From a virus (lineage: Duplodnaviria > Heunggongvirae > Uroviricota > Caudoviricetes), in the IMG/VR virus record IMGVR_UViG_3300042348_001285: 64,000 nucleotides of DNA, one strand, 5' to 3'. The translations under genes and the position numbers were made by a program. This document shows positions 13,663 to 63,973 of the stretch, piece after piece. The notes under the pieces are model-generated. The model was not told the origin of the DNA. It saw only the letters and a list, made by a program, of their open reading frames with translations, and made no database searches. Numbering within the stretch: the first letter of the stretch is position 1; each line of letters starts with the position of its first letter.

Positions 13663-14281
13663 TTGCCGTTTGGTGCGGTACCCTGTAATTATAGCATGGT
13701 GCAGGGGCAATTGCGGGGTGCCGTTTGATGGCGTTTGGTAACAATGCCGTTCGAGTAGTAGGTTTGTACTAGCGGACTTCGGCGGCAATTTTCGGTTCGA
13801 ACTATCGGGTGTGATGTTACAAAACTTAACATTCCGATGGCAGTTTGACGGCAATGAGTTTACCACAGGAGTAATACAAACGTACTAGCTGACTCCGGCG
13901 GCAATTTGCGGTTGAGAGTGGTACTAACGTACTACCTAACCCGGTGTCAAAATGGGGGCCACGAGGATCGGACTCGTCTTCTATTTGTTATGAGCAAATT
14001 GCATTCACCAGATTGCTAGACCCCCGTGAGTATTACATTACCCTGGCAAGTAAGTTCCGGTCACTATTCCTAGCAGCCATGGCAACCAGCACAGGCAAGC
14101 AAGCCCCTGTAGGCATGGTGCGTCCCAACCGTGCAATGAGTTTGGGGTCCTCACCAGGGAGAACGACCGGTTTCCATGGGCCCGGTGGAAAGGTGGTTTC
14201 GGTGGTCATAAGCCTGGGGGGTGACAGGTTGATTATAGCATAGGGGCCAACACAGTGTCAACCCCTCGGCAACCCCGACCA

Positions 14282-14540
14282 TCAATAACCCAGCCAAACC
14301 AGGGCCTGACCAGCATGGTTAGGGTTGACTTCAGGGTGGGAATCAGCCTTAAGGTCCGCAACATTTGCCTCATGCTGCCGTAGAAGCCGCCCAAGCTCGC
14401 GGTCAGTCAGGATCAGAGACTCGCTGCGGTCCCAAGCTGCGGCCAGAACGCTAGCGGCATAATTGTCGGGATCTTGACCCAGTGCATAATCAAAGCAGTC
14501 GGCCCACTGCTCGTCGGTGAAGGCAACCTGCTCGGCGCTG
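14282..14540 (-). CDS. cassette ORF whose conserved ATG position is lost; start uncertain
   Basis: The cassette 'TGCTACAATTACAGAGTCACTACCTGGACCGCCACC' is present, but I find no in-frame ATG before the body (...HIISAEQVAFTDEQW...). This is either a non-canonical start or a decayed gene. Confidence 0.25.
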
Positions 14541-14689
14541 ATGATGTGGCTGGTAGCGGTGACAGCGGTTGCCGTGGGTGGCGGTCCAGGTAGTGACTCT
14601 GTAATTGTAGCACACGGGGGTAGGGTGCCGTGGGTTCTGTTACGCTTCGTGATGATGGGCACGGCAAGGGGCCAACACAGTGTCAACCA

Positions 14690-14869
14690 TCACCCGATGC
14701 CTTCCCGATCGTATTCCCCGTAAGTCGATTCATATACGGCACGGTCATCGTAGAATTCAGCCTCAGCATTAGGATCGCCGTCAGCCAGTGCTTGGAGGAA
14801 TTTTAGGGTATCTTCGTCAGTGGGGGTAGCGGCGAAGGCGGCGGTAATGGTTGCTGATGTGGGGGCCAT
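14690..14869 (-). CDS. small cassette ORF (59 aa, MAPTSATITAAF...)
   Basis: A TACAAT box at about 14895 is followed by ATG GCC CCC. The ORF is below the track threshold. Confidence 0.4.
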   Translation of the reverse strand: MAPTSATITAAFAATPTDEDTLKFLQALADGDPNAEAEFYDDRAVYESTYGEYDREGIG

Positions 14870-15065
14870 TTTTTCTCCGGGGTGTCCGTCTATTGTAGCA
14901 TAGTGCTGGGGGGGGGGTTGGGGTTTGCGGGTCGGTGTTGTGCTTCGGGTGTTAGGCTTCGGTGAGGTTGCCGGTCGGTGAGTTTGCAGTCCGGTAAGTT
15001 GACTATCGGGTGCGATGTTACAAAACTTAACATTTCATTGGCATCGAGTTTGTGGTATGAGTTAC

Positions 15066-15372
15066 TTAAATGTAATTATAGGGTGCTTTTTGCGAGTAAT
15101 GTAGAATTCCGGGGTGTGTTTTCGGAGTAATGTAGAACGCCCCAAAATAAAAACCCAAAATTCAATCCTTGAGATCGATTGCAGGGGAACGGAGTTACTC
15201 CTAAAAAAATTAAAAATTTTAGGACCTTTTCAAAAACAGCATGAAAAATTCTATATTTGAATGCAAATTCTGCACCCTACTACTATAATCGCATATAAAT
15301 TATTTAATAGAAGACTCTTATCAATGAGTTATGATACATAAGAGTTCCTTATCAATAGGTAATAGCAGTAAA
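15066..15372. repeat. complex intergenic module, copy A (iterons, hairpins, AT-rich tail with IHF-like site)
   Basis: Carries 2x 'GGGTGCTTTTTGCGAGTAATGTAGAA'-type iterons, the hairpin TCCTAAAA-N10-TTTTAGGA, and TTGAAT...TATAAT. Related to the copies at 17.1, 19.9, 21.5, 22.2, 25.2, 25.7 and 29.4 kb. Confidence 0.8.
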
Positions 15373-15430
15373 GCAACAAAAAAAAGGGAGGGTTACCCCT
15401 ACCCATTCTTTGCGCTAAGTTTATCGCCAA

Positions 15431-15781
15431 TCAATCATTCTTGGCACCCCATGCACGCAACCGGCTAATCGCCTCCTCTATGCTGCTGGCATTAGACTTA
15501 CGGAATTTGGCCGTTTTGCTATAGGAGAACATTTCGATCTTCCCACCCCCGACGGAAAACATTGCGTAGCGGGAATTGTGGAAAATTCCGTTAATCCATT
15601 CTTCCTTGGGGTCTAGGGATACCTTGACGATTAGGGAAGCGTTTTGCTCACCGCCAAGTGTGGACCTTTGCACAGAAGAAACCGGGAAGGTGGCATTAAG
15701 GGCAGCAGCCAGGGTCTCACGGTCGGCTTCGGTCGGGATGAAGGCGGTTGCAAGGGTTGCGGTAGTTGCCGGGGCCATCAT
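15431..15781 (-). CDS. hypothetical protein (116 aa, begins MMAPATTAT)
   Basis: Cassette at 15790-15820. Confidence 0.5.
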   Translation of the reverse strand: MMAPATTATLATAFIPTEADRETLAAALNATFPVSSVQRSTLGGEQNASLIVKVSLDPKEEWINGIFHNSRYAMFSVGGGKIEMFSYSKTAKFRKSNASSIEEAISRLRAWGAKND

Positions 15782-15940
15782 TGCCGGTGGTTGGTTGGCT
15801 TCGTAATTATAGCACAGGGCCGAGGGTACTGTGGGTGATGTTACAAGGAGTGACAACAGGCACGGCAGGGTGCCGTCACGGCCTGCAACAACAGGCAAGG
15901 CAGGGGCTACCGGCAGGCAACCCCCCCCCCTGGCCATCAC

Positions 15941-16237
15941 TCACACAGCCGGAACCTGGCAGCCGGCAGCGATCACCCCTTTGCCTTCCATCTCATCCAG
16001 CAGGGTGACGTAAGCGGCAGCGATGGCGTTCTTGGTGGCACGGCCGGTTAGCTCAACCCGGAAACTCCGGCAGCTGAAGGGTAGGCATGTGAACGTGCTG
16101 TAGCCGGTGCTGGTCTCTACAGTGCCCTCACTGGCAGTGACCCTGGCAGGGCGGCCATTGGGTTTGTAGTAGGAGACTTGGAAAACCTTGCCGGGCTGGT
16201 CAAGGCTGTTCACGTAGAAGGAATTGGGGGTTGCCAT
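15941..16237 (-). CDS. hypothetical protein (98 aa, begins MATPNS)
   Basis: Cassette at 16245-16285. Confidence 0.5.
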   Translation of the reverse strand: MATPNSFYVNSLDQPGKVFQVSYYKPNGRPARVTASEGTVETSTGYSTFTCLPFSCRSFRVELTGRATKNAIAAAYVTLLDEMEGKGVIAAGCQVPAV

Positions 16238-16326
16238 TGCGGTTCGGGGTGGTTGCCGTTGGTTGGTTGCTCTGTGATTATAGAATGGAATGGAAGGGGG
16301 CGCAAGCCCCCCTCAACTCCTAGCAA

Positions 16327-16578
16327 TCACACAGCAGGCAGGTAAATTTCCAATGTGTAGGTAACCTCAGCCTCATTATAGGCAGCCAGCGTATCGGCTA
16401 GTTCCCCAAGCGTCACATAGTCGCTGTAGTCTCCATCGTCAATCAGGAATTCCATCTCATCGCCTTCGGCGGGTTCTTCCGATAGGTAGGGGGCACAGAA
16501 GGGGGCCAGTCCGGTGGGCATGGCGACGGGCAATGCAGCGAGGATTTCAGCTAGGGTAGGGGCGGTTGCGGTAGCCAT
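16327..16578 (-). CDS. small acidic cassette ORF (83 aa, begins MATATAPT)
   Basis: Cassette at 16585-16620. Confidence 0.5.
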   Translation of the reverse strand: MATATAPTLAEILAALPVAMPTGLAPFCAPYLSEEPAEGDEMEFLIDDGDYSDYVTLGELADTLAAYNEAEVTYTLEIYLPAV

Positions 16579-16771
16579 GGTGGTCTCGGTGGGTGACGAC
16601 AGGTAAATTGTAGCACACGGGGTCCTGGAACGCAAGGCCCCCCCTACTATTAGTTGCCAACTTTCGGTAGTATAGTCCCATACGTCAAATAGCCATACCT
16701 TTCGATGCCGTACTTGTGCAAAATATGCACACTGGACCATGGTACACCTTGTCCCCAAGTACCTGACTGAC

Positions 16772-16888
16772 TCATACGCTCAAAAGCACATTCAACGCTG
16801 TTACGCAGCCAGGAATGATCAATACGGGATGCTGATGCCGCTTGGTTGCTGCGGTAGTTGCGGTACTTGGGGGGGTGGGGAATGCCAT
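16772..16888 (-). CDS. tiny cassette ORF (38 aa, MAFPTPPSTATTAATKRHQHPVLIIPG...)
   Basis: Cassette at 16895-16925. The remainder of track ORF 16772..17197 is read-through. Confidence 0.3.
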   Translation of the reverse strand: MAFPTPPSTATTAATKRHQHPVLIIPGCVTALNVLLSV

Positions 16889-17027
16889 TGTTGCCGGTGG
16901 TTGGTTGGCTCCGTAATTATAGCACATTGCCTCGGGGGTTGGGGCCCCGGATTGCTGACTCCCAAGGTGTGGTGGACAGTTTGTAAACTGTCTATTTGAC
17001 TTCGTGAGTTTGACTTTTAGGGTTTGA

Positions 17028-17318
17028 TTCTGGGGTGTGTTTTCGGGGTCAATGTGGAATCTCAGAGTGCTTTTTGCAGGTAATGCAGAAACCCCAATTT
17101 GAAAAGTTCGAAAGTCAACCGCTGAGATCGACTGCAGGGGAACGGAGTTACTCCTAAAAAAATTAAAAATTTTAGGACCTACTGAAAAACCATCCAAAAA
17201 ATTCTACATTTGAATGCAAATTCTGCACCCTACTATCATATACTCGCGTAAAAATTATTTAATAGAAGACTCTTATCTAAATGTCTAGACAGATAAGTAA
17301 TTCTTATCAATCTAATCC
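17028..17318. repeat. complex intergenic module, copy B
   Basis: Same iteron, hairpin and AT-rich architecture as copy A. Confidence 0.8.
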
Positions 17319-17449
17319 CCCATCAAACCGCAATGTTGTGGGCTATTCGAGGATGCTAACCGGAGTCTCACACCAAATAGCAAAGGGGGCGATGCCGTAG
17401 CACCAACCCCCAAACATTAAACTAAGGTCAATCTAAGGCCAAACCAAGG

Positions 17450-17638
17450 TCAAACATAGAGACGAACCTGAGCCAGGAAGCACTCCCGGTGTTGCTTGCG
17501 AAGGATGGTGCGGATTCGCTTAGCCTGCTCAAGACTCCATACCCGGTTGCCCCCTACGGGCTCAGACCATGGTTTGCGGGTGATTTCCTGAACAGTGTAG
17601 AAGATTCGGGTTTTCTTGGTTGCGGTTGCGGTGGCCAT
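17450..17638 (-). CDS. small basic cassette ORF (62 aa, begins MATATATKK)
   Basis: Cassette at 17645-17690. Confidence 0.5.
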   Translation of the reverse strand: MATATATKKTRIFYTVQEITRKPWSEPVGGNRVWSLEQAKRIRTILRKQHRECFLAQVRLYV

Positions 17639-17809
17639 TGGTGCGTGTCGGTTGGTTGGTGACAAGTGAATTGTAGCACGGTCGCCGGGGGCTGTCAATG
17701 CTTTTGGGGTAGGGACCCGGCTTCCAAATTTTCGGAGGGGGCGCAAGCCCCTTGCCATCTGGTCATCATTCCCTAGGTATCAATGCCCTTGCAGTAGGAT
17801 CCAGTTCTC

Positions 17810-17880
17810 AAAATTTTCGGAGGGGGCGTTAGCCCCCGACTGGTTCGGGCGCCGTAGGCGGTAACCCGAACCCAATCCCA
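17810..17880. repeat. 71-bp GC-rich structured element, copy 1 (second copy at 39816..39885)
   Basis: Near-identical 'AATTTTCGGAGGGGGCGTTAGCCCCCGACTGGTTCGGGCGCCGTAGGCGGTAACCCGAACCCAATCCCA'. It holds hairpin GGGGGC-GTTA-GCCCCC and a perfect 8-bp stem GGTTCGGG/CCCGAACC that encloses CGCC-GTAG-GCGG. Confidence 0.75.
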
Positions 17881-17930
17881 GGGCATCAATCCCAGGGCAT
17901 CAATCCCAGGGCATCAATCCCATGGGCAAA
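17876..17930. repeat. microsatellite (gggcatcaatccca)x4 directly after the structured element
   Basis: Direct tandem reading. Confidence 0.85.
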
Positions 17931-18012
17931 GTTGCCAGTGGCTGATAACAATGGTAGTATAACAAAAAAGGCCAGGAAGCACAAGCCCCCTGACCATGGT
18001 AGCTAATCCCTA

Positions 18013-18315
18013 TCAGGAACACTGATTTAATGGGGTAGGATCAAAGTGAATATCCCGCTCGATGCGTAGTCCAGCTGGGCCCCGAGTAGCTTCTAGGTCC
18101 CTGAGGTCGAAGTACCCAAGTTCCCGCTCCAGACCGATAACCAACCCAAAGCATAACCCTGTCGCAGGATCCATCTCCGTGAGATACCATGTCCAGTTTG
18201 ACCAGGGGGTGAAAAATTTGGTATAGGCGATTGCTGCCATACCTTTACCGTCCTGTGCGTACAGGGCAGGAACCTTGGTGGCGATTGCCTTGGTTAGTAG
18301 CTTGGTGTTGGCCAT
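18013..18315 (-). CDS. hypothetical protein (100 aa, begins MANT)
   Basis: Cassette at 18320-18360. Confidence 0.5.
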   Translation of the reverse strand: MANTKLLTKAIATKVPALYAQDGKGMAAIAYTKFFTPWSNWTWYLTEMDPATGLCFGLVIGLERELGYFDLRDLEATRGPAGLRIERDIHFDPTPLNQCS

Positions 18316-18695
18316 GGTTGCCGGTGGGTGACGACAGGGTAATCATAGCACAGGCAGGAAGGGGGGGCGCAAGCCCCTTGCCCCCCGGTTTTGTCCCTCA
18401 GTCTGGAATTGATTGGCCGTAGCGGAGGGGTTCGGCTTCTTTCATTACCTAATAGCTGCATGAATGTTTAATAGCCCCATGGTAAACCACGCTCACATTC
18501 TCATATATTCTTTGTTGAAAACAAAGACTTGGCATCATTCATGCAGGTTTTCGGCTCTTACTTCACCTCATTTAACTCTCGCTGAGACAATGCGAGTAGC
18601 CCCGTTGACTTTGCGGTTTGGGTGGTGGTGGTGGGTGACTTCGGTAGTATAGCACTAATGGGAAGGGAACGCAAGCCCCCCCGACATGCCAATAA

Positions 18696-18869
18696 TCACT
18701 TGCTATCGGTCACTTCCCAAGCAGTGATTTCTTGGTCTACCAAGTTGCCTTGACCGGGATGCGGAAAGAAGTTGTAGTCCATATCGCACAGGGCATCTTC
18801 CATGTTCACACCCTCTTTAAGGTCAAAGGTGACCTTCACAGTGACGGTGGCGGTGACTTTGCGGCTCAT
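18696..18869 (-). CDS. small cassette ORF (57 aa) behind two tandem cassettes
   Basis: Two promoter cassettes at 18895-18910 and 18945-18970 have no ORF between them. The Met sits at 18869. Confidence 0.4.
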   Translation of the reverse strand: MSRKVTATVTVKVTFDLKEGVNMEDALCDMDYNFFPHPGQGNLVDQEITAWEVTDSK

Positions 18870-18999
18870 GGCGGTTCGGTGGTTGGTGACAGGGTAATCA
18901 TAGCACGGGCAGGCAGGGGGGCAAGCCCCCTCAACCGCCCGACAAGTTGACTTCGGTATTATAGCACAGGTAGGCAGGCAGGTAGGCAGGCAGGCAGGG

Positions 19000-19248
19000 T
19001 CACTCCTCCCACAGTGGGCCAGCCGACATTGCGCCAACGGGGTCACCTAAGTTTTCTGCGCTAACCGGGACGGCGGCAACATCATAGCTGGGGTGGATTT
19101 CGCCGGCTGCATTACATACCCAGCAATCGACCGTCCAAAAGCGGCCCGTGTAAATCGGGTTATAGCAATCATACTCTGGACGGTTTTCATCGTGCGGAGC
19201 ATCAGCCTGATAGATCAAGCGAGCGGAAACGGTTTTAGCGTCAGCCAT
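19000..19248 (-). CDS. small Cys/Trp-containing cassette ORF (82 aa, begins MADAKT)
   Basis: A variant cassette with a TAATAAT -10 box and a C-run leader lies at 19250-19290. Confidence 0.45.
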   Translation of the reverse strand: MADAKTVSARLIYQADAPHDENRPEYDCYNPIYTGRFWTVDCWVCNAAGEIHPSYDVAAVPVSAENLGDPVGAMSAGPLWEE

Positions 19249-19291
19249 GGTTGGGGGGGGGTGGCGGTTGGTTGGTGTTGTCGAGTAATTA

Positions 19292-19582
19292 TTAGCGTTT
19301 GGCAAGTTTGCCAGTGGCCAGCATTCCATCACCTTGGCCGCGACAATTAAAAACACGACCATCAGGCAAGCGCACAACAAAGGAATACATCCTTGTTGCG
19401 TAAGGGCCGGTACGCCATGATCCAGTTACGGCACCAGTCCCTATTTGATTACCATGCCAATCCGTAAAGGTCCAATGAGAAGTCTGGAAGAAACCTTTTA
19501 CGTTTGACCCATTGGCTGGACGCTTGGCGTAACAAGCAATGCTGTCATTAGCCTTACAATTGGTTTCAACTAAAGTGACCAT
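19292..19582 (-). CDS. hypothetical protein (96 aa)
   Basis: Cassette at 19630-19660. Confidence 0.45.
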   Translation of the reverse strand: MVTLVETNCKANDSIACYAKRPANGSNVKGFFQTSHWTFTDWHGNQIGTGAVTGSWRTGPYATRMYSFVVRLPDGRVFNCRGQGDGMLATGKLAKR

Positions 19583-19744
19583 TGCATAATCCGGCTATCT
19601 GCCGGTGGGAGGAGGGGGCCGGGTTTGTCCCGATGGGTGAATTATAGCACATTGTCGGTGGTGCTGGGGGTCCAGGATTGTTGACTCCTGGGGTGTGGTG
19701 GACAGTTTGTAAACTGTCTATTTGCGTTGGGAGTTATGACTCTG

Positions 19745-20060
19745 GGGTTGGGTGCCGAGGGTGCATTTTGTGAGTAATGTGGAACCTTAGGGTGCGTTTT
19801 CAGGGCAATGTGGAAACTCTGAAATCAAAAACCGAAAATTCAATCCCTGAGATCCGTTGCAGGGCAACGGAGTTACTCCTAAAATTTTTGAATTTTTTAG
19901 GACCTAGTGAAAAATGAGTAAGAAAATTCTACATTTGAATGCATATTCTGCACCCTACTATCATATACTCGCGTAAAAATTATTTATAGTACACTCTTAT
20001 CTAAATATCTAAACAGATAAGAAATTCTTATCCATAAGCACAATCAATGAGTTAAGAACC
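19745..20060. repeat. complex intergenic module, copy C
   Basis: Iterons 'GGGTGCATTTTGTGAGTAATGTGGAA' and 'GGGTGCGTTTTCAGGGCAATGTGGAA'. Also the hairpins, a palindrome CTTATCT-N12-AGATAAG, and 'TTATCCATA', which is DnaA-box-like. Confidence 0.8.
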
Positions 20061-43847: not shown

Positions 43848-45290
43848 TTACCCCGAAACCCTGCCATCACTAATCATTATGCCTTCACTTACCAATAACT
43901 CCCGAATCCTATCTGCTTCCTTAAAATCACGATTAGCCCTTGCGATGTTGCGCATTTCAATTAGTGCCTGAATTTCATCACTTTTTGGTTTTTGAGGCTC
44001 GGAAACCTCGTGAACCAGCCCCAAAATCCCAGCTAATTCATGTAAAAGCCCCCAACGATTTAGAATTTCCCTATTTTCATCGCCTGCCGATACAATGGGA
44101 CGAGCCAAATAGAATAATTCGCTGATGGCTACAGACGTATTAAGATCATCATTGATTGCCGAAATGAAGCGGTCTCGGCTATTTTTTAAGTCTGTAGTTA
44201 AAATCAAGGGTTCATTCGTTTGCTGACTAATCCCGTGCCGACTAATTCCATGCTGACTAATTCCATTCCGGCTAGCCCCATGCCAACTATACCCATGCCG
44301 ACTATCACCCCGCCAACCAAACCCCAATGCAGCATTTAATACTTTCCAACCATTGATCGCGGGTATCATTGCCTCTGAATTAAAATCTATCGGCTTCCTG
44401 TAATGGGCTTGTAATACGAATAACCTAATGGTCATGGGACTAATGCCGGATCCAATTAGGTCCCTGATGGTTGTAAAATTCCCTAAGGATTTAGCCATTT
44501 TTTCTTCGCCAACCGTGACAAACCCGTTATGAAGCCAATACCTGGCTAGTTCAGCCCCATTGGCAGCCTCAGATTGGGCTATCTCATTTTCGTGGTGGGG
44601 AAAGATCAGATCGGCTCCACCCAAATGAATGTCAATTGTCTCACCTAGTTCTTCCCTAATCATAGCCGAACATTCAATGTGCCATCCGGGTCGGCCCCAC
44701 CCCCATGGTGACGGAAAGCCGGGTTCACTCGCCATGGCACCCTTCCAGAGGGCAAAATCAAAAGGGTGGCCCTTCTTTGAGTCGCTATTAACCTGTTGTT
44801 GGCCAAGGTTGCGACCACTTAGTTTCCCATACCCCTTAAACCCCATAACCGAGAAGTACATATCACCACCCATAGAATAAGCAAATCCCTTATCGGCAAG
44901 GTCCTGAATCATGGTGCGGATTGCATCAAGACTACGGGTAACCCTTGGCATTTTGTCGGCGGGCAGGATGTTCAATGCACCCATATCCCCCTCAAAGGCC
45001 CTGATATTACGCTCACTGACGGCTTCGATTGTTGTTCCTTCAGAGTTGGCTTTGGCTAGAATTTTATCGTCGATATCCGTATAATTCTGAACAAACGTAA
45101 CCTCATACCCATGCCACATAAAATTACGCCTTAAAACATCCCACACAATATAACTGCGGGCGTGCCCTAAGTGGCATAAATCATAAACGGTAACACCGCA
45201 ACAATACATCGACACTTTGCCTGGAACCAGCGGAGTAAACTTTTCCTTGGCTTTAGTAAGGGTGTTGGTTAGGGTAATGTCGTTAATCAT
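43848..45290 (-). CDS. cysS: cysteinyl-tRNA synthetase with an internal HGIS repeat insertion
   Basis: HIGH region '[15 protein letters not shown]' and KMSKS region 'KMAKSLGNF'. The insertion '..[27 protein letters not shown]..' is encoded by a 15-bp tandem DNA repeat at about 44215-44290. Confidence 0.85.
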
Positions 45291-45423
45291 TGTATTTGCA
45301 GTGGGGGGGGCTGGGGGCTGCGTCAATTACTTATGTGTCCTTGTTAAATGGAGAAATTGCCAACTGAATCGCAAAGTGCTGCAATAAGTGCGGGCACATA
45401 TGAAATATAAATAACCCCCCTTG

Positions 45424-55419: not shown

Positions 55420-56094
55420 TTAACCCAGCAGCAAGCACGATGCCGAAGCATCGTCAACCCATAGGGTTTCCAGATCATAGACAGAATTTGGCTTGCCTTC
55501 TTCCAAGGTAACTCCAAGGTTCCCCGTATAGTAGTTACTGGTTACCCTAGCCACTGTGCCTATGGGCTTTACTGTCTTTTTCTTTTGCCTCCTGTAAACA
55601 GTTTGCCCCTTCAAATATGAATATCCATTAGGATCACATCTGACAGGGCTATCACTAACTTTGGTGTACCCTTCGATATTGACCCCCTTAGTCTCACCAT
55701 CGGCACAATTTGTTTGTTTATTGCCTTTCCTGTTTCTATAGGGTCGGTCACCATTACCCTTCCTAAAGTTACATCCCGCGCACATTGGTTGGAGATTATT
55801 AAGGCTGTCACCACCCCCTTTAGACTTGGGAACAATATGATCAACAGTCAATGGATAAAGATCTTCAGTATAAACATCCCAATGTCTCCCACCACGGCCT
55901 TTACCCAATACTAACCTAGACCCAACTTTGCCGCAAGTTACGCAAGTACACCCTTTGTTTGCAAAAACTCTTAGGCGCGGATGGGAACTAAATGATGGCA
56001 AACTTAATTTCTCAATTGGGGTCTCCCTGAGGACAATATAGTTAAAAATCTGGGTCTTTGCGGTCAGGTTAACCCTTGTGGCTACGGCACCCAT
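55420..56094 (-). CDS. HNH endonuclease
   Basis: 'CTCVTCGK...HWDV...LTVDHIVPKSKGGGDSLNNLQPMCAGCN' carries the Cys and His/Asn residues of the HNH motif. Confidence 0.8.
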   Translation of the reverse strand: MGAVATRVNLTAKTQIFNYIVLRETPIEKLSLPSFSSHPRLRVFANKGCTCVTCGKVGSRLVLGKGRGGRHWDVYTEDLYPLTVDHIVPKSKGGGDSLNNLQPMCAGCNFRKGNGDRPYRNRKGNKQTNCADGETKGVNIEGYTKVSDSPVRCDPNGYSYLKGQTVYRRQKKKTVKPIGTVARVTSNYYTGNLGVTLEEGKPNSVYDLETLWVDDASASCLLLG

Positions 56095-56225
56095 CACTTC
56101 ACCCCCAACTTAACCAGCAGGCAAGTACGGCGAGCCCTAGCGGCCTTAGCCGCCTGTGGCTTACGTTTGCCCTTGGATTTACGACCCTTCTCACGGGGTC
56201 CCAGTTTGCTGTGGTTGCTGGTCAT
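56094..56225 (-). CDS. small basic ORF (43 aa) translationally coupled to the HNH gene (TGATG overlap)
   Basis: A TATAAT promoter at about 56245 is followed by 'MTSNHSKLGPREKGRKSKGKRKPQAAKAARARRTCLLVKLGVK'. Confidence 0.35.
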   Translation of the reverse strand: MTSNHSKLGPREKGRKSKGKRKPQAAKAARARRTCLLVKLGVK

Positions 56226-56963: not shown

Positions 56964-57713
56964 TTACATTTTCATTGTAGCATCTAGACGCAAGCCCCCA
57001 GAGAAGATAACCTTAGCCATTGTGTCAGGTAGCGTCCCCAGTAGATGCAGAGAGTCTAAAGTGGAAAACATAAACATTTTGTTAAGCTCCTCCCTTACCC
57101 TTTCTCTGGAGACGCAAGCTAGCATTTCTACTGCCAAGTCACTGCGCAATACGGCATAAGTTTCATCATCGGGGATGAATCCTTTGGTAATTTGGAACCT
57201 GAACCCTCTGAGTACCCTAAGGCCGTCCTCTCTGATTCTGTCAGCAGGGTTCCCAACGAAACGGAGAATTTTGTTCCTAATGTCGAGAACTCCCCCGAAA
57301 GGGTCAATCAGGGATCCATCAATGGCCTTGGCAATTGCCCCACTGGAAAAGTCCCTTCTGGCTAAATCATCATGCAAAGTACCCGGCTTCACCCAATCAG
57401 GGTGACGGCCATCGCTGTAGGGACCATCTTTGCGGGCTAGTACAAAATCTGCGACGGTGGTGCGGGCTTCTAGCGCATGGCCCTTTGGGACCCGCGCACG
57501 GATGGTTAGAAACTCACGGCGAGATTCGAAGATTTGAAAACCTTGTTCAGAGAGTTGAGCTTCCATTGCTAAGAAAGCGCTATCGGCCGTGGCGAAGACA
57601 CCCTTGGGAGCAACAACAGAGAAGTCAATGTCCTTGGATGGAATCCCAAGTAAACTATCCCTGACACAACCCCCTACCTCAAAAAATTGAAATTTTTCCA
57701 CTTGCTTTGCCAT
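56964..57713 (-). CDS. class-II nucleotidyltransferase (CCA-adding enzyme / poly(A) polymerase head-domain family), short form
   Basis: 'FEVGGCVRDSLLGIPSKDIDFSV' matches the GGxVRDxLLGxxxxDxD signature. The protein is only 249 aa, so head and neck domains without the tRNA-binding body. Confidence 0.7.
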   Translation of the reverse strand: MAKQVEKFQFFEVGGCVRDSLLGIPSKDIDFSVVAPKGVFATADSAFLAMEAQLSEQGFQIFESRREFLTIRARVPKGHALEARTTVADFVLARKDGPYSDGRHPDWVKPGTLHDDLARRDFSSGAIAKAIDGSLIDPFGGVLDIRNKILRFVGNPADRIREDGLRVLRGFRFQITKGFIPDDETYAVLRSDLAVEMLACVSRERVREELNKMFMFSTLDSLHLLGTLPDTMAKVIFSGGLRLDATMKM

Positions 57714-58129
57714 TTATGCCTCGGTTTTTGATTACTGGTATTTTAGCATAGGGGGTGGCAAGCTGTCAAGGGGTGGTGCTTATGGGGTAGCCGAGGGTGG
57801 CTGAGGGTGGCCGATGCGGTTGTTTACGCCTACCATGATACATTAAGTTTTGTTACTGTCTTTATTCTGTGGCAAAGTGACGCTTACAAACCTTGAGCAA
57901 CACTAATTCCCCCAAGTATCTATCACTGTGTTCCAAAAATGCACTCATTGCTTCCCCCCTCAGAATTATAACCACCATAGGAATTTAAACGTTTACCAAA
58001 CATAGCCCTATCATCAGGATCTACAAGGCGCCCTTCATCTGTCAATTCTCTCCAAATGTAGGAAGTTGTTATTCTGGTGGCTTTTCTAGATTGATACATT
58101 ATTGGGGGAGGTTAATATACCGAGTACAA

Positions 58130-58924
58130 TCAAATCTTAGGCAATTCAACTACTTTGCCGACAGGTTCTGGGGGTACCATGGCATCAGCCCCACCATCAG
58201 CCCCACCATCGGCCCCACCATCAGCCCCACCATCAGCCCCACCAATCAACTTACTGCCGTCAACCATGGCCGCCATAGCACCTACACCATAACTATGAGC
58301 AGTTTGGATAAAATGGGCTTCAACTTCTGCCTTAGCTTCTTCGACCATGTCTTCAGTTGCCTCCCTAAAGGATTCCACTGCAAAGTTTAGGTCCCCCGGT
58401 AGCTTATTGGCTTCAGATTTTAAATTGCTTACAATTTCCCTTAGTTTAACCTTGCTGATAGACTTATCATTAAGTACCCCCTCTAGTTGGTCTGCAATGT
58501 CATTGATCCCTTGCATAGCCTGTTCAAGTTTAACCCCAAACTCCTCATTGAAACTATCTTTCCGGTTCTTCTCTGGTGGTTTAATCCCAGGAACAGCAAC
58601 CAGTGGCCCCTCAGAAAGGCGATTCAAAGTAATTGGGGTAGCTTGACTTCTACCTGCTCCGCTGACAAATTTCCCCCATTGAGCTTCACTCATTGAGAAC
58701 TCAACAACTTGTCCCCTAGGGAATACCCAATCCCTATGCAAATTCCTTTCCATCTCTGCTGTTTGAATGGTTACCGATATGTAGTGATTATGGCTTAAAT
58801 CAGACCCGAACAAATAAACCCCAGGTGTACATTGCGGGCGAGTAACTGTGATCACCCCATAAGCAGGATGGCTGTAAACTTGGTTGTTGTCTTTGGTGGT
58901 GATGGTAGGTGCTTGATTGCTCAT
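58130..58924 (-). CDS. hypothetical protein (264 aa) with a (GGAD)x5 repeat
   Basis: A 12-bp tandem DNA repeat 'caccatcagccc' lies at 58188-58247. Confidence 0.5.
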   Translation of the reverse strand: MSNQAPTITTKDNNQVYSHPAYGVITVTRPQCTPGVYLFGSDLSHNHYISVTIQTAEMERNLHRDWVFPRGQVVEFSMSEAQWGKFVSGAGRSQATPITLNRLSEGPLVAVPGIKPPEKNRKDSFNEEFGVKLEQAMQGINDIADQLEGVLNDKSISKVKLREIVSNLKSEANKLPGDLNFAVESFREATEDMVEEAKAEVEAHFIQTAHSYGVGAMAAMVDGSKLIGGADGGADGGADGGADGGADAMVPPEPVGKVVELPKI

Positions 58925-59024
58925 TGATTTTGGTGGGGTTGTCTTTGGTGGGGATGTGTGTCGCTGCTGTCGTTGCTGTCGGGTTATATGGAAAGGGCTT
59001 ACATTCACTGCATACTATCGGCGA

Positions 59025-59456
59025 TTAGCGACTAGCAGTAACTTTAGAGCGACTGAGGATCGTAGCAACATAAATGCGCCCCTTTTTAGCCATGGCAGAT
59101 ACTGCTTTGTTACGATTAAATACCGGAACTTTCTTAACGGTGGGCTCCATTTTAGCCTTGGCAGCATCTTCTAGGGCCTTCAGTTTGGCTTTGGCAACTT
59201 CCACCGTTTGGGTAGCCTTTTGGATCTTAGTATTGCCAGAAAAATCATATTCCTTATCCTCCCGCAGAATGAAATTACCAAAAATTGTCTCAATTTTCTT
59301 AAGATCGGCAGCCGTCAGTTTCCCAGCAATGGAAGCTTTAACAGCATTCCTGCGCTCAGTCAGGGCAGCAATACGCTCTTCCAGCGAAGACAAGCGACGG
59401 ACAAGGTTCTCGGTGGTTTGGGCTTGGGTTTGGATTGTAGTTTGGGCGATGGCCAT
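59025..59456 (-). CDS. hypothetical coiled-coil protein (143 aa)
   Basis: Ala/Lys-rich heptad-like sequence. Confidence 0.45.
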   Translation of the reverse strand: MAIAQTTIQTQAQTTENLVRRLSSLEERIAALTERRNAVKASIAGKLTAADLKKIETIFGNFILREDKEYDFSGNTKIQKATQTVEVAKAKLKALEDAAKAKMEPTVKKVPVFNRNKAVSAMAKKGRIYVATILSRSKVTASR

Positions 59457-59578
59457 GGCTTCGGTGTGTGTCAACTGAACCCAGTATAAGGGGTGCCTTG
59501 CCCCCTTGTCAACCCCCCCTAACCAAAACGCAACCATCACCCGTCGTCTTAGTACGGGAGAAGAAGCGACAATGGCTA

Positions 59579-59986
59579 CTAAACCAACTTAGCTTGAATT
59601 TTATCTAACTTTTCCAACAGGGCACCCATGGACTTGGCTTCCTCCACTGCAAGGTCTAATTGCCCCCTGGTCACATAAGTAGCAATCCGCTCACTTTGCC
59701 TTGTGCGAAATACAGAACAAAAAGACTCAGCACATTGTGCTAAGATGCCCCATTCTTCATTACTTAGTTCAATTGAGCGCTTGATTGGGCTATTTGCATC
59801 ATTGTCAAAATCCCTATAGCCCTCAGACTCTATTGCACATGGTTCTAAAAGCAGGCGATGGAGCCTAGGGAGCCGGCGGGGCGGTGCATCAAGGGCGGCA
59901 TTAAATGCGTCCCAATTCGCCGTATCCAAAATAATAGGCTGTTGGTCTCCCTGGTCTCCGCCGGGAAGCCCACTTGGTGTGGTCAT
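59579..59986 (-). CDS. hypothetical protein (135 aa)
   Basis: Intact ORF. Confidence 0.45.
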   Translation of the reverse strand: MTTPSGLPGGDQGDQQPIILDTANWDAFNAALDAPPRRLPRLHRLLLEPCAIESEGYRDFDNDANSPIKRSIELSNEEWGILAQCAESFCSVFRTRQSERIATYVTRGQLDLAVEEAKSMGALLEKLDKIQAKLV

Positions 59987-60279
59987 TTGTTGTTATGCAA
60001 TTTATGTAGTTTATTCAGAAAGAGGAAACCAGCATATTTATGGAAAACCTCAACAGGTCTCCAATCATTGAAGTATTCAGATGACAGAAACCATTTGCCA
60101 CTTTCCGATTTATATACTCTGCCACACTCTGACATTGTATTTGAGCTACGGTAAATGACTAGGGACGGTTTATTTACTGAGATGTAGAGAGGGGATTGGT
60201 ATTTTGTTTGTGGTTTGTCCATGGTGGAGGCGGAAAGGAGGGGGTAGGGTGGATGAGAGTTAAACGAATGTGGTGACAA
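59983..60279 (-). CDS. hypothetical protein (98 aa)
   Basis: Intact ORF. The start overlaps the upstream stop (ATGA). Confidence 0.45.
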   Translation of the reverse strand: MSPHSFNSHPPYPLLSASTMDKPQTKYQSPLYISVNKPSLVIYRSSNTMSECGRVYKSESGKWFLSSEYFNDWRPVEVFHKYAGFLFLNKLHKLHNNK

Positions 60280-60298
60280 TCAACAAATGTAGAGACAA

Positions 60299-61021
60299 TC
60301 AACTAAAGATATCTACTGTTTCTTTTTTCTTAATCTGCCAGTAAGTGTCTCGGGTAGCATTATACGCGGTCAAAATACCTGAAAACACAGCACCAGTATC
60401 AATGCCGATACGGTCCTTGGTTATATCCGGATCTTTACCTACGATAGTATGGCCATGGACAACTTTCTTTATTTTGTCGGTCCATTTATGTAGTTCGGGC
60501 CCCGTGCTCAAAAATGGTTCACGCACCCATAGTAGGTTGTCGGCCTTTTTAGTTTTAATTTGTTCAAAGGGGTCATGCCCAGGAAACACTCCAGCATGAA
60601 TAAACATTGTGTCCCCCACAGTCATGTAGATAGGTAGTTGTTTGATCCATTCATAGTGATTGGCTTTCATGTCTTCAAACTGTTTAAGATTTCCGCCATT
60701 TCTCACCCAAATCGCCAAAGAATTGTATCCCCACATGGTTTCGGATCCTGCAACAACATCGACAAACATACGCTCATGATTGCCCATCAGCACATTGAAA
60801 CTTTCTAGTCCTGCACTTTCGGGGTCATCCATAAGCTCCTTGACTTTGTTAAGGACCTTCATATCTTCCCCGCCACGATCTATCAAGTCCCCCAGCAGAA
60901 TCACTCGCGCCCCAGTTCCATTAAGCCACTTTAATGCGGCAGTTAAAACATCATAACGAGCGTGGATGTCACCAATGGCTACTACATCACCGGCATTTAC
61001 TTTTTTCCTTAGTTTAGTCAT
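60299..61021 (-). CDS. calcineurin-like metallophosphoesterase (lambda-phosphatase/ApaH-type Ser/Thr phosphatase)
   Basis: 'GDIHARYD', 'GDLIDRG' and 'GNHE' motifs. Confidence 0.8.
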   Translation of the reverse strand: MTKLRKKVNAGDVVAIGDIHARYDVLTAALKWLNGTGARVILLGDLIDRGGEDMKVLNKVKELMDDPESAGLESFNVLMGNHERMFVDVVAGSETMWGYNSLAIWVRNGGNLKQFEDMKANHYEWIKQLPIYMTVGDTMFIHAGVFPGHDPFEQIKTKKADNLLWVREPFLSTGPELHKWTDKIKKVVHGHTIVGKDPDITKDRIGIDTGAVFSGILTAYNATRDTYWQIKKKETVDIFS

Positions 61022-61132
61022 TTTACTTCGGGGGTTTTACTTTGGGGGTTAATACTTCGGTATTTACCCTGTGGATATCCTATGGGTAATCCTACAGAGC
61101 CACCCTGCGGGGCCACCCTGCGGGTTCATAAC

Positions 61133-61618
61133 CTAGCAACCAACATATTCTACCATAGAGAAACCTTCCGTGTCAACCCCCCTTAAGGACGCTTGCAAGG
61201 CAGAGTGCATCTTTTCAATAACCAACTCAGGTACATTGCGAACCCTGGCTGAGTTTTGCTTAAGGCAAATGTCTAAGGGTGGGTTCACTACGATGGCCCT
61301 AATGTCAGGGTACCCATAACTCTGGAGCAAAGCAATTGCGTCCTTGCGGTATTTTGCCCTATAATGGGTGCCATCCATAATGAGTACCTTGCCAACATTT
61401 TCCTCAATTAAGTTCTCAATACGGTTCTGAATAACCATCCATTCGCCTTGAATGTTGGCGTCCCCATATAATTCTGCTCGGATTTGGTCCCCGGAAATTA
61501 TTACCGCATTTTCACGCTTAGCAATCCCAGCAGCATAGGTGGATTTACCGGAGCCAGGGGGCCCTACCATGATGTAGGCATAGTTGTGGTTGTGGGTGAG
61601 GGTGTTTATGGGGGCCAT
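61133..61618 (-). CDS. polynucleotide 5'-kinase (T4 Pnk kinase-domain-like P-loop kinase)
   Basis: 'IMVGPPGSGKSTYA', then 'ISGDQIRAEL' (like DxxR), 'LIMDGTH' and 'NSARVRNVPELVIEKM'. These are co-linear with T4 Pnk 'GCPGSGKSTWA / NRDDYR / ISDTNL / NSKRGTKAVPIDV'. Confidence 0.6.
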   Translation of the reverse strand: MAPINTLTHNHNYAYIMVGPPGSGKSTYAAGIAKRENAVIISGDQIRAELYGDANIQGEWMVIQNRIENLIEENVGKVLIMDGTHYRAKYRKDAIALLQSYGYPDIRAIVVNPPLDICLKQNSARVRNVPELVIEKMHSALQASLRGVDTEGFSMVEYVGC

Positions 61619-61727
61619 AATGGGATCCAAGGGGTATAGGTAGGTGCAGGGACCTAAGGACCGGGTGTCAAACCGCATCAATTACACTTAGTATAGCATA
61701 CCGCTAACCAAAGTCAATGCCCTAAGG

Positions 61728-61970
61728 TCAACGCCCCAAAATCAAAAACCTATATCTATCCAACCAATCCTTAAGCAAATCATCATCTTCGACTACTTGG
61801 GAGTTTTGATTTACAAAATCTTCAACTATCCACGCAACCTCTTTAAATTGCAATTCATTGCAGTCGGGTTTGAATGATACTTTGAGATTAGGATATTTCG
61901 GCAGTATCGCAATTAGTTGCGACTTTAGGCTTGATGGTGTGCTCATTTTGCAACTGACGGGATTCAACAA
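61728..61970 (-). CDS. hypothetical protein (80 aa)
   Basis: Intact ORF. Confidence 0.45.
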   Translation of the reverse strand: MLNPVSCKMSTPSSLKSQLIAILPKYPNLKVSFKPDCNELQFKEVAWIVEDFVNQNSQVVEDDDLLKDWLDRYRFLILGR

Positions 61971-61985
61971 ACTTACCCATTGCCA

Positions 61986-62216
61986 TCAAAGGTCAGTCTC
62001 TAAGGCAATTTCCCCCAAGTTAAACTTTTCCATAATATCCAAATAACCAGCATTCAAGATACCTTGAATAAGGTCACCGTCATCTAGTTCCTTCAGATTT
62101 GCAGTCAAGGCTTCGCAATAAACACGAATAAGCTCTTTAACTGGTGCATTTTCTGCAACACGGGACACTAAAATGTCGATCAGTTCGTTGCGATTTTCAA
62201 TAGATTCAGGAGCCAT
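61986..62216 (-). CDS. hypothetical protein (76 aa)
   Basis: Intact ORF. Confidence 0.45.
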   Translation of the reverse strand: MAPESIENRNELIDILVSRVAENAPVKELIRVYCEALTANLKELDDGDLIQGILNAGYLDIMEKFNLGEIALETDL

Positions 62217-62327
62217 TTTTTGTTGGGTTTGCTTGGTCTGTTTGGTTTGCTTGGTCTGTTTGGTCTATCAATGTAATTTTACAATTACCTTAATATAACC
62301 GTGATGTAACCCCCATGGATTACAATA

Positions 62328-62412
62328 AGGAAGAGGGGAGATTCGAACTCCCGGAGGTTTAACCCCCTGCAGTTTTCAAGACTGCTGCTATCAACCACTC
62401 AGCCACTCTTCC
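62328..62412 (-). tRNA. trnS(UGA): tRNA-Ser (anticodon UGA), class II with long variable arm; 3' CCA not encoded
   Basis: Minus strand folds as follows. Acceptor GGAAGAG/CTCTTCC. D-stem GCTG/TAGC with loop AGTGGTTGA. Anticodon stem GCAGT/ACTGC with loop CUUGAAA, anticodon UGA. Variable arm of 16 nt. T-stem GGGAG/CUCCC with loop UUCGAAU. It is followed by UUAU, not CCA. Confidence 0.9.
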
Positions 62413-62422
62413 AATAGCTCAC

Positions 62423-62629
62423 CTAAGGGGCTTTAATGTTGCTCTTTGCAAGGTCTAACCTAATCCAATTTTTCAAGGTTTGAACACTGCGAATTTTTGC
62501 CTGAAGGTGTGATAATCCTTCTTCGGAAAAAGACTCAGGACATAACTCTCGTTCGGCAATTAGTTCCCCCGCATACATTTCAAGGGCTTCGATTGCGAGT
62601 TCTTTATCTTGTTTGGAAATTAGTGACAT
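62423..62629 (-). CDS. hypothetical protein (68 aa)
   Basis: Intact ORF. Confidence 0.45.
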   Translation of the reverse strand: MSLISKQDKELAIEALEMYAGELIAERELCPESFSEEGLSHLQAKIRSVQTLKNWIRLDLAKSNIKAP

Positions 62630-62632
62630 GGC

Positions 62633-63973
62633 CTATGAGTTGAAACCTTTGGGTGCGTTGAATCTGCGGTTTTCATGAATTTTTTCTATTTTACCCGAGA
62701 TAGCCCATTCAGACCCTTCTTTCGAAGATGAATTTTCTAGATTGCAAAATGATAAGGGCTGTACATAATAATCTTGCTTTAGGGCATTCACCAGTTCGTG
62801 GAACTTTTTATCTGCTTCTGTGTCAGGTCCTAGTTTAGGCACTCGGATCCGTAAAGTTCCGAAAAATCTCCCCTTGCCAACTTCGTAGGTTTCCCTAATC
62901 TTCCCCCAAGCCAGTTCGTTTACTATGTCATCTACAGATAGGTCCAATTCACCTTCAACCATTTCCTTTGTGGCCTCTCTTTTTACTTCGGGGTCATTAG
63001 AGAAGCGGCTGAAAATGAAGTTATTAGAGATGCGGTAGAATCGGCTGATAGCGCCTGACACAGATTGTTTATATTCTGTAAGTTTCCGTTGAGCTTTCCT
63101 TAGGGTGTTACCCTTGGTGGGGTCATAACTCAAGAGCTTACAAAAGTATAAATCTTCAAAACTTTTCCCTTCACCCAAGGTTTGGATTTCGTTAGTGGCG
63201 CAGGCGTAAACACTTTTATATCCCCCCATACAGTCATTGGTAGCAATCCAACCGAAGAACGCACGAGAGTAATCCCCTACAATAATAGTGTCATAAAGAT
63301 CATGCTCACCATCTGGGACTGCTAGGTAAAGGGGCCTTTGTTGATTGTTTGTATGAACTATTTTAAATCCAGGATTCGTTTTTAAAGTCTCTTCTTCTGT
63401 CTGTCTTTTCACTCTGGCAATATCTACAGGTTTCGAGGAAACACCAGGTATGTAATACAAGTCTGGAGCTATAATGTCCAAAGACTCTGCCAAAGTTTTT
63501 AACTTTGCCTTTCGATCTTCGAATTCTCTCCAGCACTTTACTTTACTAACCCAATTTTTTTCAAGTGAAGTTTCGTCATCTCTGGATAGAGCACTTAAAA
63601 AGTACCAAAATTCCAAAACTTTATCCCAATTCTTCCCAAGAACTCTTTCAGGCTCGTTAAGTACGATGGCAGGGTTTAGGCTTGAAAGGTCGTTGAACCT
63701 TTTTAAGAGAACAGCGTGAATAAAACTGATCCCAAGGGTTTTAGCGGTGGTGGCGCTTAAACTTGGATTGTTACCTCGGAGTCCATTAGCCGCCCCCATC
63801 CAGAAAGCCTGAAAGTCCATCACCCCCATGCCCTTAGAGAGCATAATCGCTTCACTCTGGGCACAAGGGCTGAGACCTTTTTCTTCTCTCACCAGTTCGT
63901 AACCCTTACCGGGCATACCCCCAGGCTGAGACCATTTTTTAGTTAGTTTGTTTATTAGTCCGGTGTTTGCCAT
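62633..63973 (-). CDS. large hypothetical protein (446 aa); speculative nucleotidyltransferase/RNA-ligase-like
   Basis: No firm motif. 'GFKIVHTNN' weakly recalls Rnl2 motif I KIHGTN but lacks the Gly. The position next to the PNK/phosphatase/tRNA genes is suggestive only. Confidence 0.5.
   Translation of the reverse strand: MANTGLINKLTKKWSQPGGMPGKGYELVREEKGLSPCAQSEAIMLSKGMGVMDFQAFWMGAANGLRGNNPSLSATTAKTLGISFIHAVLLKRFNDLSSLNPAIVLNEPERVLGKNWDKVLEFWYFLSALSRDDETSLEKNWVSKVKCWREFEDRKAKLKTLAESLDIIAPDLYYIPGVSSKPVDIARVKRQTEEETLKTNPGFKIVHTNNQQRPLYLAVPDGEHDLYDTIIVGDYSRAFFGWIATNDCMGGYKSVYACATNEIQTLGEGKSFEDLYFCKLLSYDPTKGNTLRKAQRKLTEYKQSVSGAISRFYRISNNFIFSRFSNDPEVKREATKEMVEGELDLSVDDIVNELAWGKIRETYEVGKGRFFGTLRIRVPKLGPDTEADKKFHELVNALKQDYYVQPLSFCNLENSSSKEGSEWAISGKIEKIHENRRFNAPKGFNS

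Follow-up and report, generated by a model that had tools for sequence, protein, structure and literature searches.

Bacteriophage T4 reverses the damage inflicted by PrrC with two enzymes, Pnkp (PseT), a D-x-x-R P-loop kinase fused to a HAD (DxDxT) phosphatase, and the RNA ligase Rnl1. The bacterial counterpart (C. thermocellum, Anabaena) is a single polypeptide in which the kinase is followed by a phosphatase of the lambda-phosphatase-like class and by a C-terminal ligase domain, and it is accompanied by the 2'-O-methyltransferase Hen1. Sets of tRNAs, RNA ligase, polynucleotide kinase, phosphatase and CCA-adding enzyme have been described in jumbo phages, and calcineurin-like phosphatases in a few of them (Iyer, Anantharaman, Krishnan, Burroughs and Aravind 2021, PMC7824862). 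Here we analysed a DNA stretch of 64,000 nucleotides (hereafter the window) from the IMG/VR virus record IMGVR_UViG_3300042348_001285 (Caudoviricetes), and in particular its region 56964-63973. An initial annotation of this region had listed a short CCA-adding enzyme, a lambda-type metallophosphatase, a polynucleotide 5'-kinase, a tRNA-Ser(UGA) and a protein of 446 amino acids (aa), and had proposed that together they form a counter-defence module against a host nuclease aimed at tRNA-Ser. The five features are all real and lie on the minus strand, with their coordinates unchanged, as confirmed with the list of open reading frames (ORFs) and ARAGORN. Our analysis points to a predicted split Pnkp-like end-healing pair, kinase and phosphatase, in a phage lineage that also encodes an Rnl1-type RNA ligase.

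The window forms a long run of genes, small for the most part, that point in one direction (of 135 non-overlapping ORFs, 110 lie on the minus strand), and many of them match PHROG families. No nucleotide match of the region was found by megablast among 50,697 records of deposited phages, and all the relatives of the window are metagenomic. Because homologues of its genes sit on metagenomic contigs of 277-282 kb and no deposited phage matched at the nucleotide level, the window is a piece of a jumbo phage of ~280 kb that has not been cultivated, and the region studied here belongs to its accessory arm. The nearest relative found is a contig of 279,339 bp (loci L005, L122, L134 and L135, whose common contig identity was established by exact 40-mer), and for most of the proteins encoded in this region its identity with the window is 78-97%. 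Gene linkage was scored by tblastn and ARAGORN in a sample of 80 IMG/VR loci with a kinase alignment. Pfam and PHROG screens covered 84 further ORFs of the window, and the 10 ORFs around the kinase-phosphatase pair were screened with Pfam.

The kinase-phosphatase pair

The kinase gene (61133..61618, minus strand) encodes 161 aa from its ATG; the open frame runs on to a TTG at 61681, and homologues begin near the ATG. The protein matches AAA_33 (6.6e-21), and its top solved structure is the kinase domain of C. thermocellum Pnkp (CthPnk; 4GP6, 2.2e-11), which aligns from end to end, followed in the PDB by L-seryl-tRNA(Sec) kinase (3ADB, 1e-8) and Capnocytophaga Pnkp1. The NCBIfam ranking is also headed by bacter_Pnkp (2.7e-15, kinase segment). 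In CthPnk, residues K21, S22, D38, R41, T80, R120 and R123 are essential or contact the substrates, and among them D38 and R41 (the D-x-x-R motif) provide the general base and the orienting arginine, and the threonine anchors the first phosphodiester (PMC3902929). These seven positions align with K25, S26, D44, R47, T84, R125 and R127 of the window kinase. K25 and S26 (NTP and Mg binding) belong to the P-loop GPPGSGKST; at the acceptor site, D44-Q-I-R47 corresponds to D38/R41 and D82-G-T84 to D78/T80; R125 and R127 are the lid arginines that contact the gamma-phosphate. In an alignment of 28 homologues (A4, 51-87% identity) the catalytic residues are invariant, as are D82 and both lid arginines, with the exception of T84, which is kept in at least 90% of the sequences. 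The position of the stacking residue R116 of CthPnk is occupied by Gln or Arg across the family.

Since every catalytic residue of CthPnkp is matched, the assignment made in the initial annotation, that of a T4-Pnk-like polynucleotide 5'-kinase, is upheld. It had been stated beforehand that a small-molecule kinase of the nucleoside monophosphate (NMP) or shikimate type would speak against RNA repair; this is not the case here, because Pnkp is the best match and the matches to adenylate and gluconate kinases are confined to the P-loop. Judged by these residues, the protein is a predicted Pnkp-type 5'-OH polynucleotide kinase. Among bacterial genomes its relatives (Saccharibacteria, Capnocytophaga and others) reach at most 32% full-domain identity and so give no clue to the host.

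The phosphatase gene (60299..61021, minus strand) encodes a lambda-type binuclear metallophosphoesterase of 240 aa (Metallophos, 5.3e-12). Lambda phosphatase (lambda-Pase) is its top solved structure (1G5B, 1e-7), and it matches the PHROG families phrog_246 (6e-42) and phrog_8238, the latter named 'RNA ligase' (1.3e-8). All the metal-binding motifs are present, in agreement with the class first assigned to it: GDIHA, GDLIDRG, GNHE, IHAG and HGHT align with D20/H22, D49/R53, N75/H76, H139 and H186 of lambda-Pase, and residues D18, H20, D45, R49, N81, H82, H142, H191 and D208 are identical in at least 95% of 34 distinct sequences of the clade. Lambda-Pase and the phosphatase of CthPnkp both hydrolyse 2',3'-cyclic phosphates (PMC2190708), and the window enzyme is a putative 2',3'-cyclic phosphodiesterase and 3'-phosphatase. 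By its sequence it is a generic lambda/ApaH/PrpA-like enzyme, and the assignment to RNA end healing would follow from its genetic context.

This context is highly conserved. In the window the two genes are separate ORFs 111 bp apart, and no ligase domain accompanies them. The phosphatase gene lies immediately downstream of the kinase gene in every sufficiently long locus whose kinase is at least 49% identical (~40 loci from IMG/VR and metagenomes), with gaps ranging from 4 bp (L008) to ~190 bp, and in L048 the two matches overlap. The order is inverted in L050 and L053-L055, where the kinase is 37-42% identical, and the two genes are still neighbours there. The genes flanking the pair vary among relatives: a FEN gene, the CCA-enzyme gene and the gene for the 446-aa protein may each be present or absent. 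Moreover, the viral contig L087 encodes a natural fusion of 745 aa with the arrangement AAA_33 kinase - Metallophos - RNA_lig_T4_1, and in the profiles of phrog_8238 (737 positions) and phrog_246 (417) the N-terminal part matches the window kinase and a later part the window phosphatase. More distant relatives of the kinase are fused to HD or HAD_PNKP phosphatases, a modularity well known among end-healing enzymes. Because the catalytic residues are kept, the adjacency is conserved and a natural kinase-phosphatase-Rnl1 fusion exists, the two proteins are best described as a predicted split Pnkp-like end-healing pair. The residues, the adjacency in ~40 loci and the L087 fusion also bear out the earlier remark that the split arrangement resembles bacterial Pnkp and not the HAD fusion of T4.

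Two small direct repeats are present in the spacer between both genes (61021-61124), whose predicted RNA structure was not significant (z = -1.2). A gene for a FEN-type 5'-3' exonuclease lies directly 3' of the pair in L008 (17049-17945), with equivalents in L010, L018, L026, L038, L040, L045 and L047; none occurs at this position in the window or in its nearest relative. Locus L008 also has a gene for a stand-alone HAD_PNKP phosphatase, 2.7 kb beyond the FEN gene.

The RNA ligase and the 446-aa protein

No ligase family was detected by the Pfam and PHROG screens among the 84 further ORFs of the window. A jackhmmer search seeded with an actinophage Rnl1 located Rnl1-type genes near the kinase in L047, L050, L053 and L055; further searches with this ligase showed that it shares contigs with kinases of the clade, including the 279,339-bp contig of the nearest relative. 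In this relative the ligase gene lies on the same strand, 26.5 kb upstream of the kinase gene and 23 kb upstream of the homologue of the 446-aa gene. Its product matches PF09511 (RNA_lig_T4_1) with an E-value of 1.3e-14, passing the Pfam threshold, and keeps the motif I lysine, the EG of motif IV and the KxK of motif V. The heal-and-seal toolkit would thus be complete in the nearest relative, judging from its gene content. Only 27 bp of the window remain beyond the 446-aa gene, and the corresponding position in the phage under study lies outside it and is not visible.

Upstream sequence of the relatives holds a further gene, ~8 kb upstream of the homologue of the 446-aa gene, that encodes a protein of ~500 aa with DUF2828 and DUF7788 (L005 739-2274, L008 2731-4200). 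It may correspond to an RNA-binding protein, ROT/TROVE-like, that some jumbo phages have been reported to encode.

The initial annotation had remarked in passing that the 446-aa protein might be ligase-like. The gene (62633..63973, minus strand; function unknown), together with a downstream partner ORF of 68 aa (62423..62629, minus strand), makes up an insertion (62423..63973) in the tRNA mini-cluster. The protein has no match in Pfam, PHROGs, NCBIfam, PADLOC or the PDB sequences, nor in a tblastn search of phages. A first AlphaFold2 (AF2) model, built from 26 close homologues, was unusable, with a predicted local distance difference test score (pLDDT) of 47. With distant relatives collected by a profile search of 1.8 billion representatives, AlphaFold gave a confident model (pLDDT 83; predicted template modelling score, pTM, 0.71), which has neither a ligase nor an RtcB fold, and no KxDG motif is present in the protein. 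Hence, the ligase assignment was rejected, the one element of the initial description of the five features that did not hold. Many relatives also lack the gene, and there the genes for tRNA(UAU) and tRNA-Ser directly adjoin.

The 446-aa protein shares 61% identity with its counterpart in the nearest relative (L005 10001-11377), compared with the 78-97% of neighbouring proteins. In blocks of 40 residues, this identity is 62-95% over residues 1-120 and 33-53% over residues 121-240, a pattern that suggests diversifying selection or allele replacement. The N-terminal domain (~140 residues) is conserved and shared with more than 100 small uncharacterised metagenome proteins, for which phrog_8332 (function unknown) was the only match in Pfam and PHROG scans; the C-terminal part shows a weak Alba/Pop7-like resemblance. 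We conclude that the 446-aa gene is an unrelated, rapidly diverging accessory gene, a variable insertion between tRNA genes. That it encodes a new tRNA-directed factor, one that inhibits a host tRNA nuclease or serves as its decoy, or else a specificity subunit steering the healing enzymes or the body-less CCA enzyme, with its central region diversifying in an arms race, seems to us quite improbable.

tRNA genes, the CCA enzyme and neighbouring genes

The class II tRNA-Ser(UGA) gene (62328..62412, minus strand) was called by ARAGORN and confirmed as genuine with Rfam (tRNA, 59.9 bits). Its acceptor stem (GGAAGAG/CTCTTCC) is followed by T73 and then by TATTG; inspection of the gene and its flanks therefore confirmed the U73 discriminator and the lack of an encoded CCA noted at the outset. 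Orthologues with UGA or CGA anticodon occupy the same place in relatives, as part of a conserved mini-cluster that consists of tRNA-Arg(UCU), a tRNA with UAU or CAU anticodon, sometimes tRNA-Leu(UAA), and then tRNA-Ser(UGA) or tRNA-Ser(CGA). The mini-cluster lies 1-6 kb upstream of the kinase gene in nearly all the loci of the clade, and in one subclade (L101) an array of 29 tRNA genes adjoins the ligase gene. None of the 127 distinct tRNAs of the clade has an encoded CCA, and the discriminator, U73 in the window, is G73 in most relatives.

These observations do not favour tRNA-Ser as the special target that had been proposed: the lack of CCA is clade-wide, U73 is specific to the lineage, the anticodon switches between UGA and CGA, and the gene is one member of a conserved cluster. 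The phage tRNA-Ser is one of a small conserved set that would supplement or replace host tRNAs, and nothing singles it out. The codon UCA makes up 16% of the Ser codons, a host-independent count that does not test codon supplementation.

A small conserved ORF of 76 aa and unknown function (p76; 61986..62216, minus strand) lies directly downstream of tRNA-Ser in loci of the clade according to tblastn and has no family match. Between tRNA-Ser and this next ORF, an 18-nt unit is repeated 2.4 times in tandem (62221-62264). Several relatives carry a UAU tRNA of 89-92 nt whose variable arm is long and class-II-like (L005 9825-9914, L008 9790-9878, L016, L023-L046, L037 1698-1789, L052 7275-7363). 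The loop of this arm (CAGAUUA) is conserved and its stem covaries (CCGG/CCGG, CCCC/GGGA, GGAG/CUCC); the tRNA has no sequence relationship with the tRNA-Ile(UAU) of 74-75 nt found in the sister subclade. Because it is located just upstream of the homologue of the 446-aa gene in the relatives, it probably lies just past the end of the window. An ARAGORN call of tRNA-Met(CAU) at 13953..14025 (minus strand) was considered doubtful or degenerate and was not used as evidence, given that it has no Rfam tRNA match even at E<=1 and a T-loop UCCGAUC instead of the usual TTCRANY type.

The gene at 56964..57713 (minus strand) encodes a short class II tRNA nucleotidyltransferase of 249 aa, predicted to be of the CCA-adding type. 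It matches the PolyA_pol head (9.6e-17), phrog_24229 (3.4e-49), the NCBIfam CCA tRNA nucleotidyltransferase (2.1e-32, partial) and the structures 6IBP (5e-25) and 1MIV (4e-22), and its best family matches are CCA enzymes, not PcnB or A-adding enzymes. The motifs VGGCVRD and KDIDF (motif A), RRDF (motif B) and REDGLR (motif D) are invariant in alignment A7. The protein consists of head and neck and lacks the C-terminal body and tail with which class II CCA-adding enzymes of about 400 aa hold the tRNA: matches stop at about residue 220-250 of chains of 390-450 aa, and the profile of phrog_24229 ('tRNA nucleotidyltransferase') is itself only 245 positions long. Homologues occur in 492 phage records, and the same architecture of ~245 aa, with head plus neck and motifs A, B and D, is found in the best of them, gp209 of Synechococcus phage B23 (54% full-length identity), and in gp17 of S-CBWM1 (42%). 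In S-CBWM1 the CCA gene lies beside an array of 23 tRNAs and a different calcineurin-like phosphoesterase (gp16), which was considered as a homologue of the window phosphatase and found not to be homologous.

In the window and in its nearest relative the CCA-enzyme gene lies 2.6 kb downstream of the kinase-phosphatase pair. Close linkage on the same strand occurs only in the nearest relatives of the window and in L018; on a clade contig of 277 kb the gene is ~21 kb from the pair and on the opposite strand, and of the 80 best CCA-enzyme loci only one, that of the nearest relative, has the pair within 4 kb. Thus, the identity of this enzyme and its head and neck motifs agree with the minimal class II CCA/A-adding enzyme first described, and its membership in a tight module with the pair is not maintained. 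Its simplest role would be the maturation of the CCA-less tRNAs of the phage, and it may also take part in rebuilding damaged 3' ends.

An HNH endonuclease gene is found near the CCA-enzyme gene of the window (55420-56097, minus strand), and a different HNH gene is inserted right behind the CCA-enzyme gene of L007 (8190-8636). This suggests homing-endonuclease traffic in the region. A tandem repeat of a 12-nt unit (5.2 copies, 58183-58244) encodes a (GGAD)n stretch at the C-terminus of a 292-aa protein of phrog_6452.

Three small ORFs on the minus strand, of unknown function and with tblastn homologues in the relatives, accompany the pair. One, p80 (61728..61970; ~72-80 aa), is conserved, has no family match and lies directly upstream of the kinase gene in most clade loci holding upstream sequence (L005-L047). 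The other two recur 2-4 kb downstream of the phosphatase gene in most relatives: p98 (59983..60279; 98 aa), which has no family match, and p135 (59579..59986; 135 aa), in which residues 14-46 give a short TacA1-like match (9.9e-5), just above the Pfam cut-off. Further along the same accessory arm, 43848..45326 (minus strand) encodes a phage cysteinyl-tRNA synthetase (CysRS) of 492 aa, with tRNA-synt_1e (6e-122), DALR_2 and the CysS anticodon-binding domain. The segment ~6000-20000 of the window has a G+C content of 0.51-0.57, versus 0.41-0.49 in most of the rest, with positive GC skew; in contrast to the remaining window, it holds only short ORFs (up to 186 aa) on both strands. No meaningful match to defence families was obtained with PADLOC, and promoter-like sites were not more numerous than expected by chance.

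Proposed heal-and-seal repair, alternative explanations and known systems

The reading best supported by gene content and conserved linkage, and one that we consider reasonably probable, combines RNA repair by a heal-and-seal pathway with the provisioning of tRNAs. A metal-independent host ribonuclease (e.g. an anticodon nuclease) would cut tRNA and leave a 2',3'-cyclic phosphate and a 5'-OH. The lambda-type metallophosphatase would open and remove the cyclic phosphate, leaving a 3'-OH, and the Pnkp-type kinase would phosphorylate the 5'-OH. The break would then be sealed by an Rnl1-type ATP-dependent RNA ligase, presumably encoded beyond the window, ~23-27 kb upstream. Meanwhile, the phage tRNAs, the CCA enzyme and CysRS would keep translation supplied. 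The presence of a repair and tRNA-provisioning set is supported by the genes themselves and by their linkage; we infer from it the RNA substrates, the order of the reactions and the counter-defence role. This leaves the overall interpretation of the initial annotation standing in part: the end-healing pair and an RNA ligase in the lineage agree with it, and the 446-aa ligase, the targeting of tRNA-Ser and the tight link with the CCA enzyme do not.

Several observations weigh against RNA repair. The CCA-enzyme gene is not consistently linked to the pair. The ligase gene lies tens of kb away and was seen only in relatives, the window ending where it does. A 5'-3' exonuclease gene follows the pair in most relatives and genes of DNA metabolism are nearby, which is compatible with a role at DNA ends. 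According to this explanation, the pair would heal DNA ends (5'-OH, 3'-phosphate), and not tRNA, during replication or repair or after attack by a host nuclease, in combination with the 5'-3' exonuclease. A FEN ORF was found in 9 of 15 sampled relatives and was directly after the phosphatase gene in the loci inspected (L008, L010, L018); the genes nearby include those for thymidylate synthase, thymidylate kinase, DNA polymerase A and DNA modification, and DNA oligonucleotides served as the phosphate acceptors in crystals of CthPnk (PMC3902929). However, neither the window nor its nearest relative has the FEN gene at this position, the pair is consistently near tRNA genes, the clade carries Rnl1, and an RNA ligase of this type is the partner of the pair in the single natural fusion detected; healing of DNA ends is thus unlikely to be the role of the pair. 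The phosphatase sequence is a further difficulty for RNA repair, since it resembles ApaH and the protein phosphatases of PrpA/B type no less than the phosphatase of Pnkp: NCBIfam places ApaH (2e-16) and the PrpA/B protein phosphatases (9e-12) above bacter_Pnkp (1.4e-9), and PHROG names the family 'NinI-like serine-threonine phosphatase'. These scores would fit a group of unrelated accessory genes kept together by descent only, in which the phosphatase would either hydrolyse (di)nucleotides as ApaH does or belong to the Ser/Thr protein phosphatases of the NinI type, and the kinase would act on small molecules or be some other kind of P-loop kinase; synteny is indeed expected when most of the loci come from one phage clade. 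Descent has a low probability as the sole explanation, considering that the adjacency outlasts the inversion of gene order and the turnover of flanking genes, that the two domains are fused in other phages, and that the acceptor site of the kinase retains the D-x-x-R and the Thr found specifically in polynucleotide and tRNA kinases.

The dedicated module against a host tRNA-Ser nuclease, in which the 446-aa protein would serve as ligase and the CCA-less U73 tRNA-Ser, with the phage's own CCA enzyme, as a replacement, had in its favour that the genes share a strand and fit within 7 kb, that a tRNA-Ser orthologue is kept at this position in most relatives, and that phage tRNAs have been proposed to stand in for host tRNAs cleaved by defence systems (PMC7824862). 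It now appears highly unlikely: the 446-aa protein matches neither ligases nor RtcB in family or fold, has no KxDG motif and is missing from many relatives, both anticodon and discriminator of the tRNA vary, no clade tRNA encodes CCA, and tRNA-Ser is invariably found together with tRNA-Arg(UCU) and a tRNA with anticodon UAU or CAU, accompanied in relatives by up to 29 more tRNAs. The kinase might instead resemble L-seryl-tRNA(Sec) kinase (PSTK) and phosphorylate an aminoacyl-tRNA, e.g. Ser-tRNA from the neighbouring tRNA-Ser gene 650 bp upstream, rather than a 5'-OH end; this enzyme is the second-best match in both the PDB and NCBIfam (selen_PSTK, 2.7e-13). Pnkp outscores it in both libraries, and the kinase, with 161 aa compared with the 249-260 aa of PSTK, lacks the C-terminal part of the latter, the matches covering the first ~140 PSTK residues. 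In addition, the anticodon is UGA and not the UCA of tRNA(Sec), the conserved partner of the kinase is a phosphatase, and its fusions are to RNA ligase. A PSTK-like function is therefore extremely improbable.

With heal-and-seal repair as the preferred reading, a metagenome-only clade of ~280-kb phages joins the phages known to bring tRNAs and RNA-repair enzymes of their own. Where a phage lineage carries such a set, its hosts probably defend themselves by cleaving tRNAs. The most interesting idea, that of a tRNA-Ser-directed module equipped with a new ligase, was not borne out; unexplained are the hypervariable 446-aa protein and, in relatives, the 90-nt tRNA(UAU) with its long covarying variable arm. 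The pair, composed of two small soluble proteins, and the natural fusion of 745 aa are easy biochemical targets.

Compared with T4, the logic is the same: a D-x-x-R P-loop kinase, a phosphatase and, in the lineage, a ligase of the Rnl1 family. The window kinase is also homologous, with 32-35% identity, to domains of actinophages and Bacillus phages annotated as polynucleotide kinase. The differences lie in the phosphatase, which here is a separate binuclear metalloenzyme of the lambda type and not a fused HAD domain, and in the ligase gene, which is tens of kb off. With bacterial Pnkp the window shares the type of kinase, the class of phosphatase and the kinase-then-phosphatase order; unlike it, the proteins are split and the ligase, seen in the relatives, is separate and of the Rnl1 type. 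The pair does not belong to the trifunctional Pnkp family, because the genes are split and no Pnkp-type ligase domain was found; the bacter_Pnkp bit scores were 55.6 (kinase) and 36.7 (phosphatase) against a cut-off of 750. Neither Hen1 nor a methyltransferase family was detected by Pfam among the 84 further ORFs of the window or the 10 ORFs around the pair. The inventory matches that of the jumbo-phage survey of Iyer et al. 2021 (PMC7824862), and the match may extend to the DUF2828/DUF7788 protein of the relatives. That survey dealt with cultured and deposited jumbo phages, whereas the present clade comes from metagenomes and consistently has a split kinase and lambda-type phosphatase; its healing step would be carried out by a bacterial-Pnkp-like pair teamed with a T4-type Rnl1 ligase.

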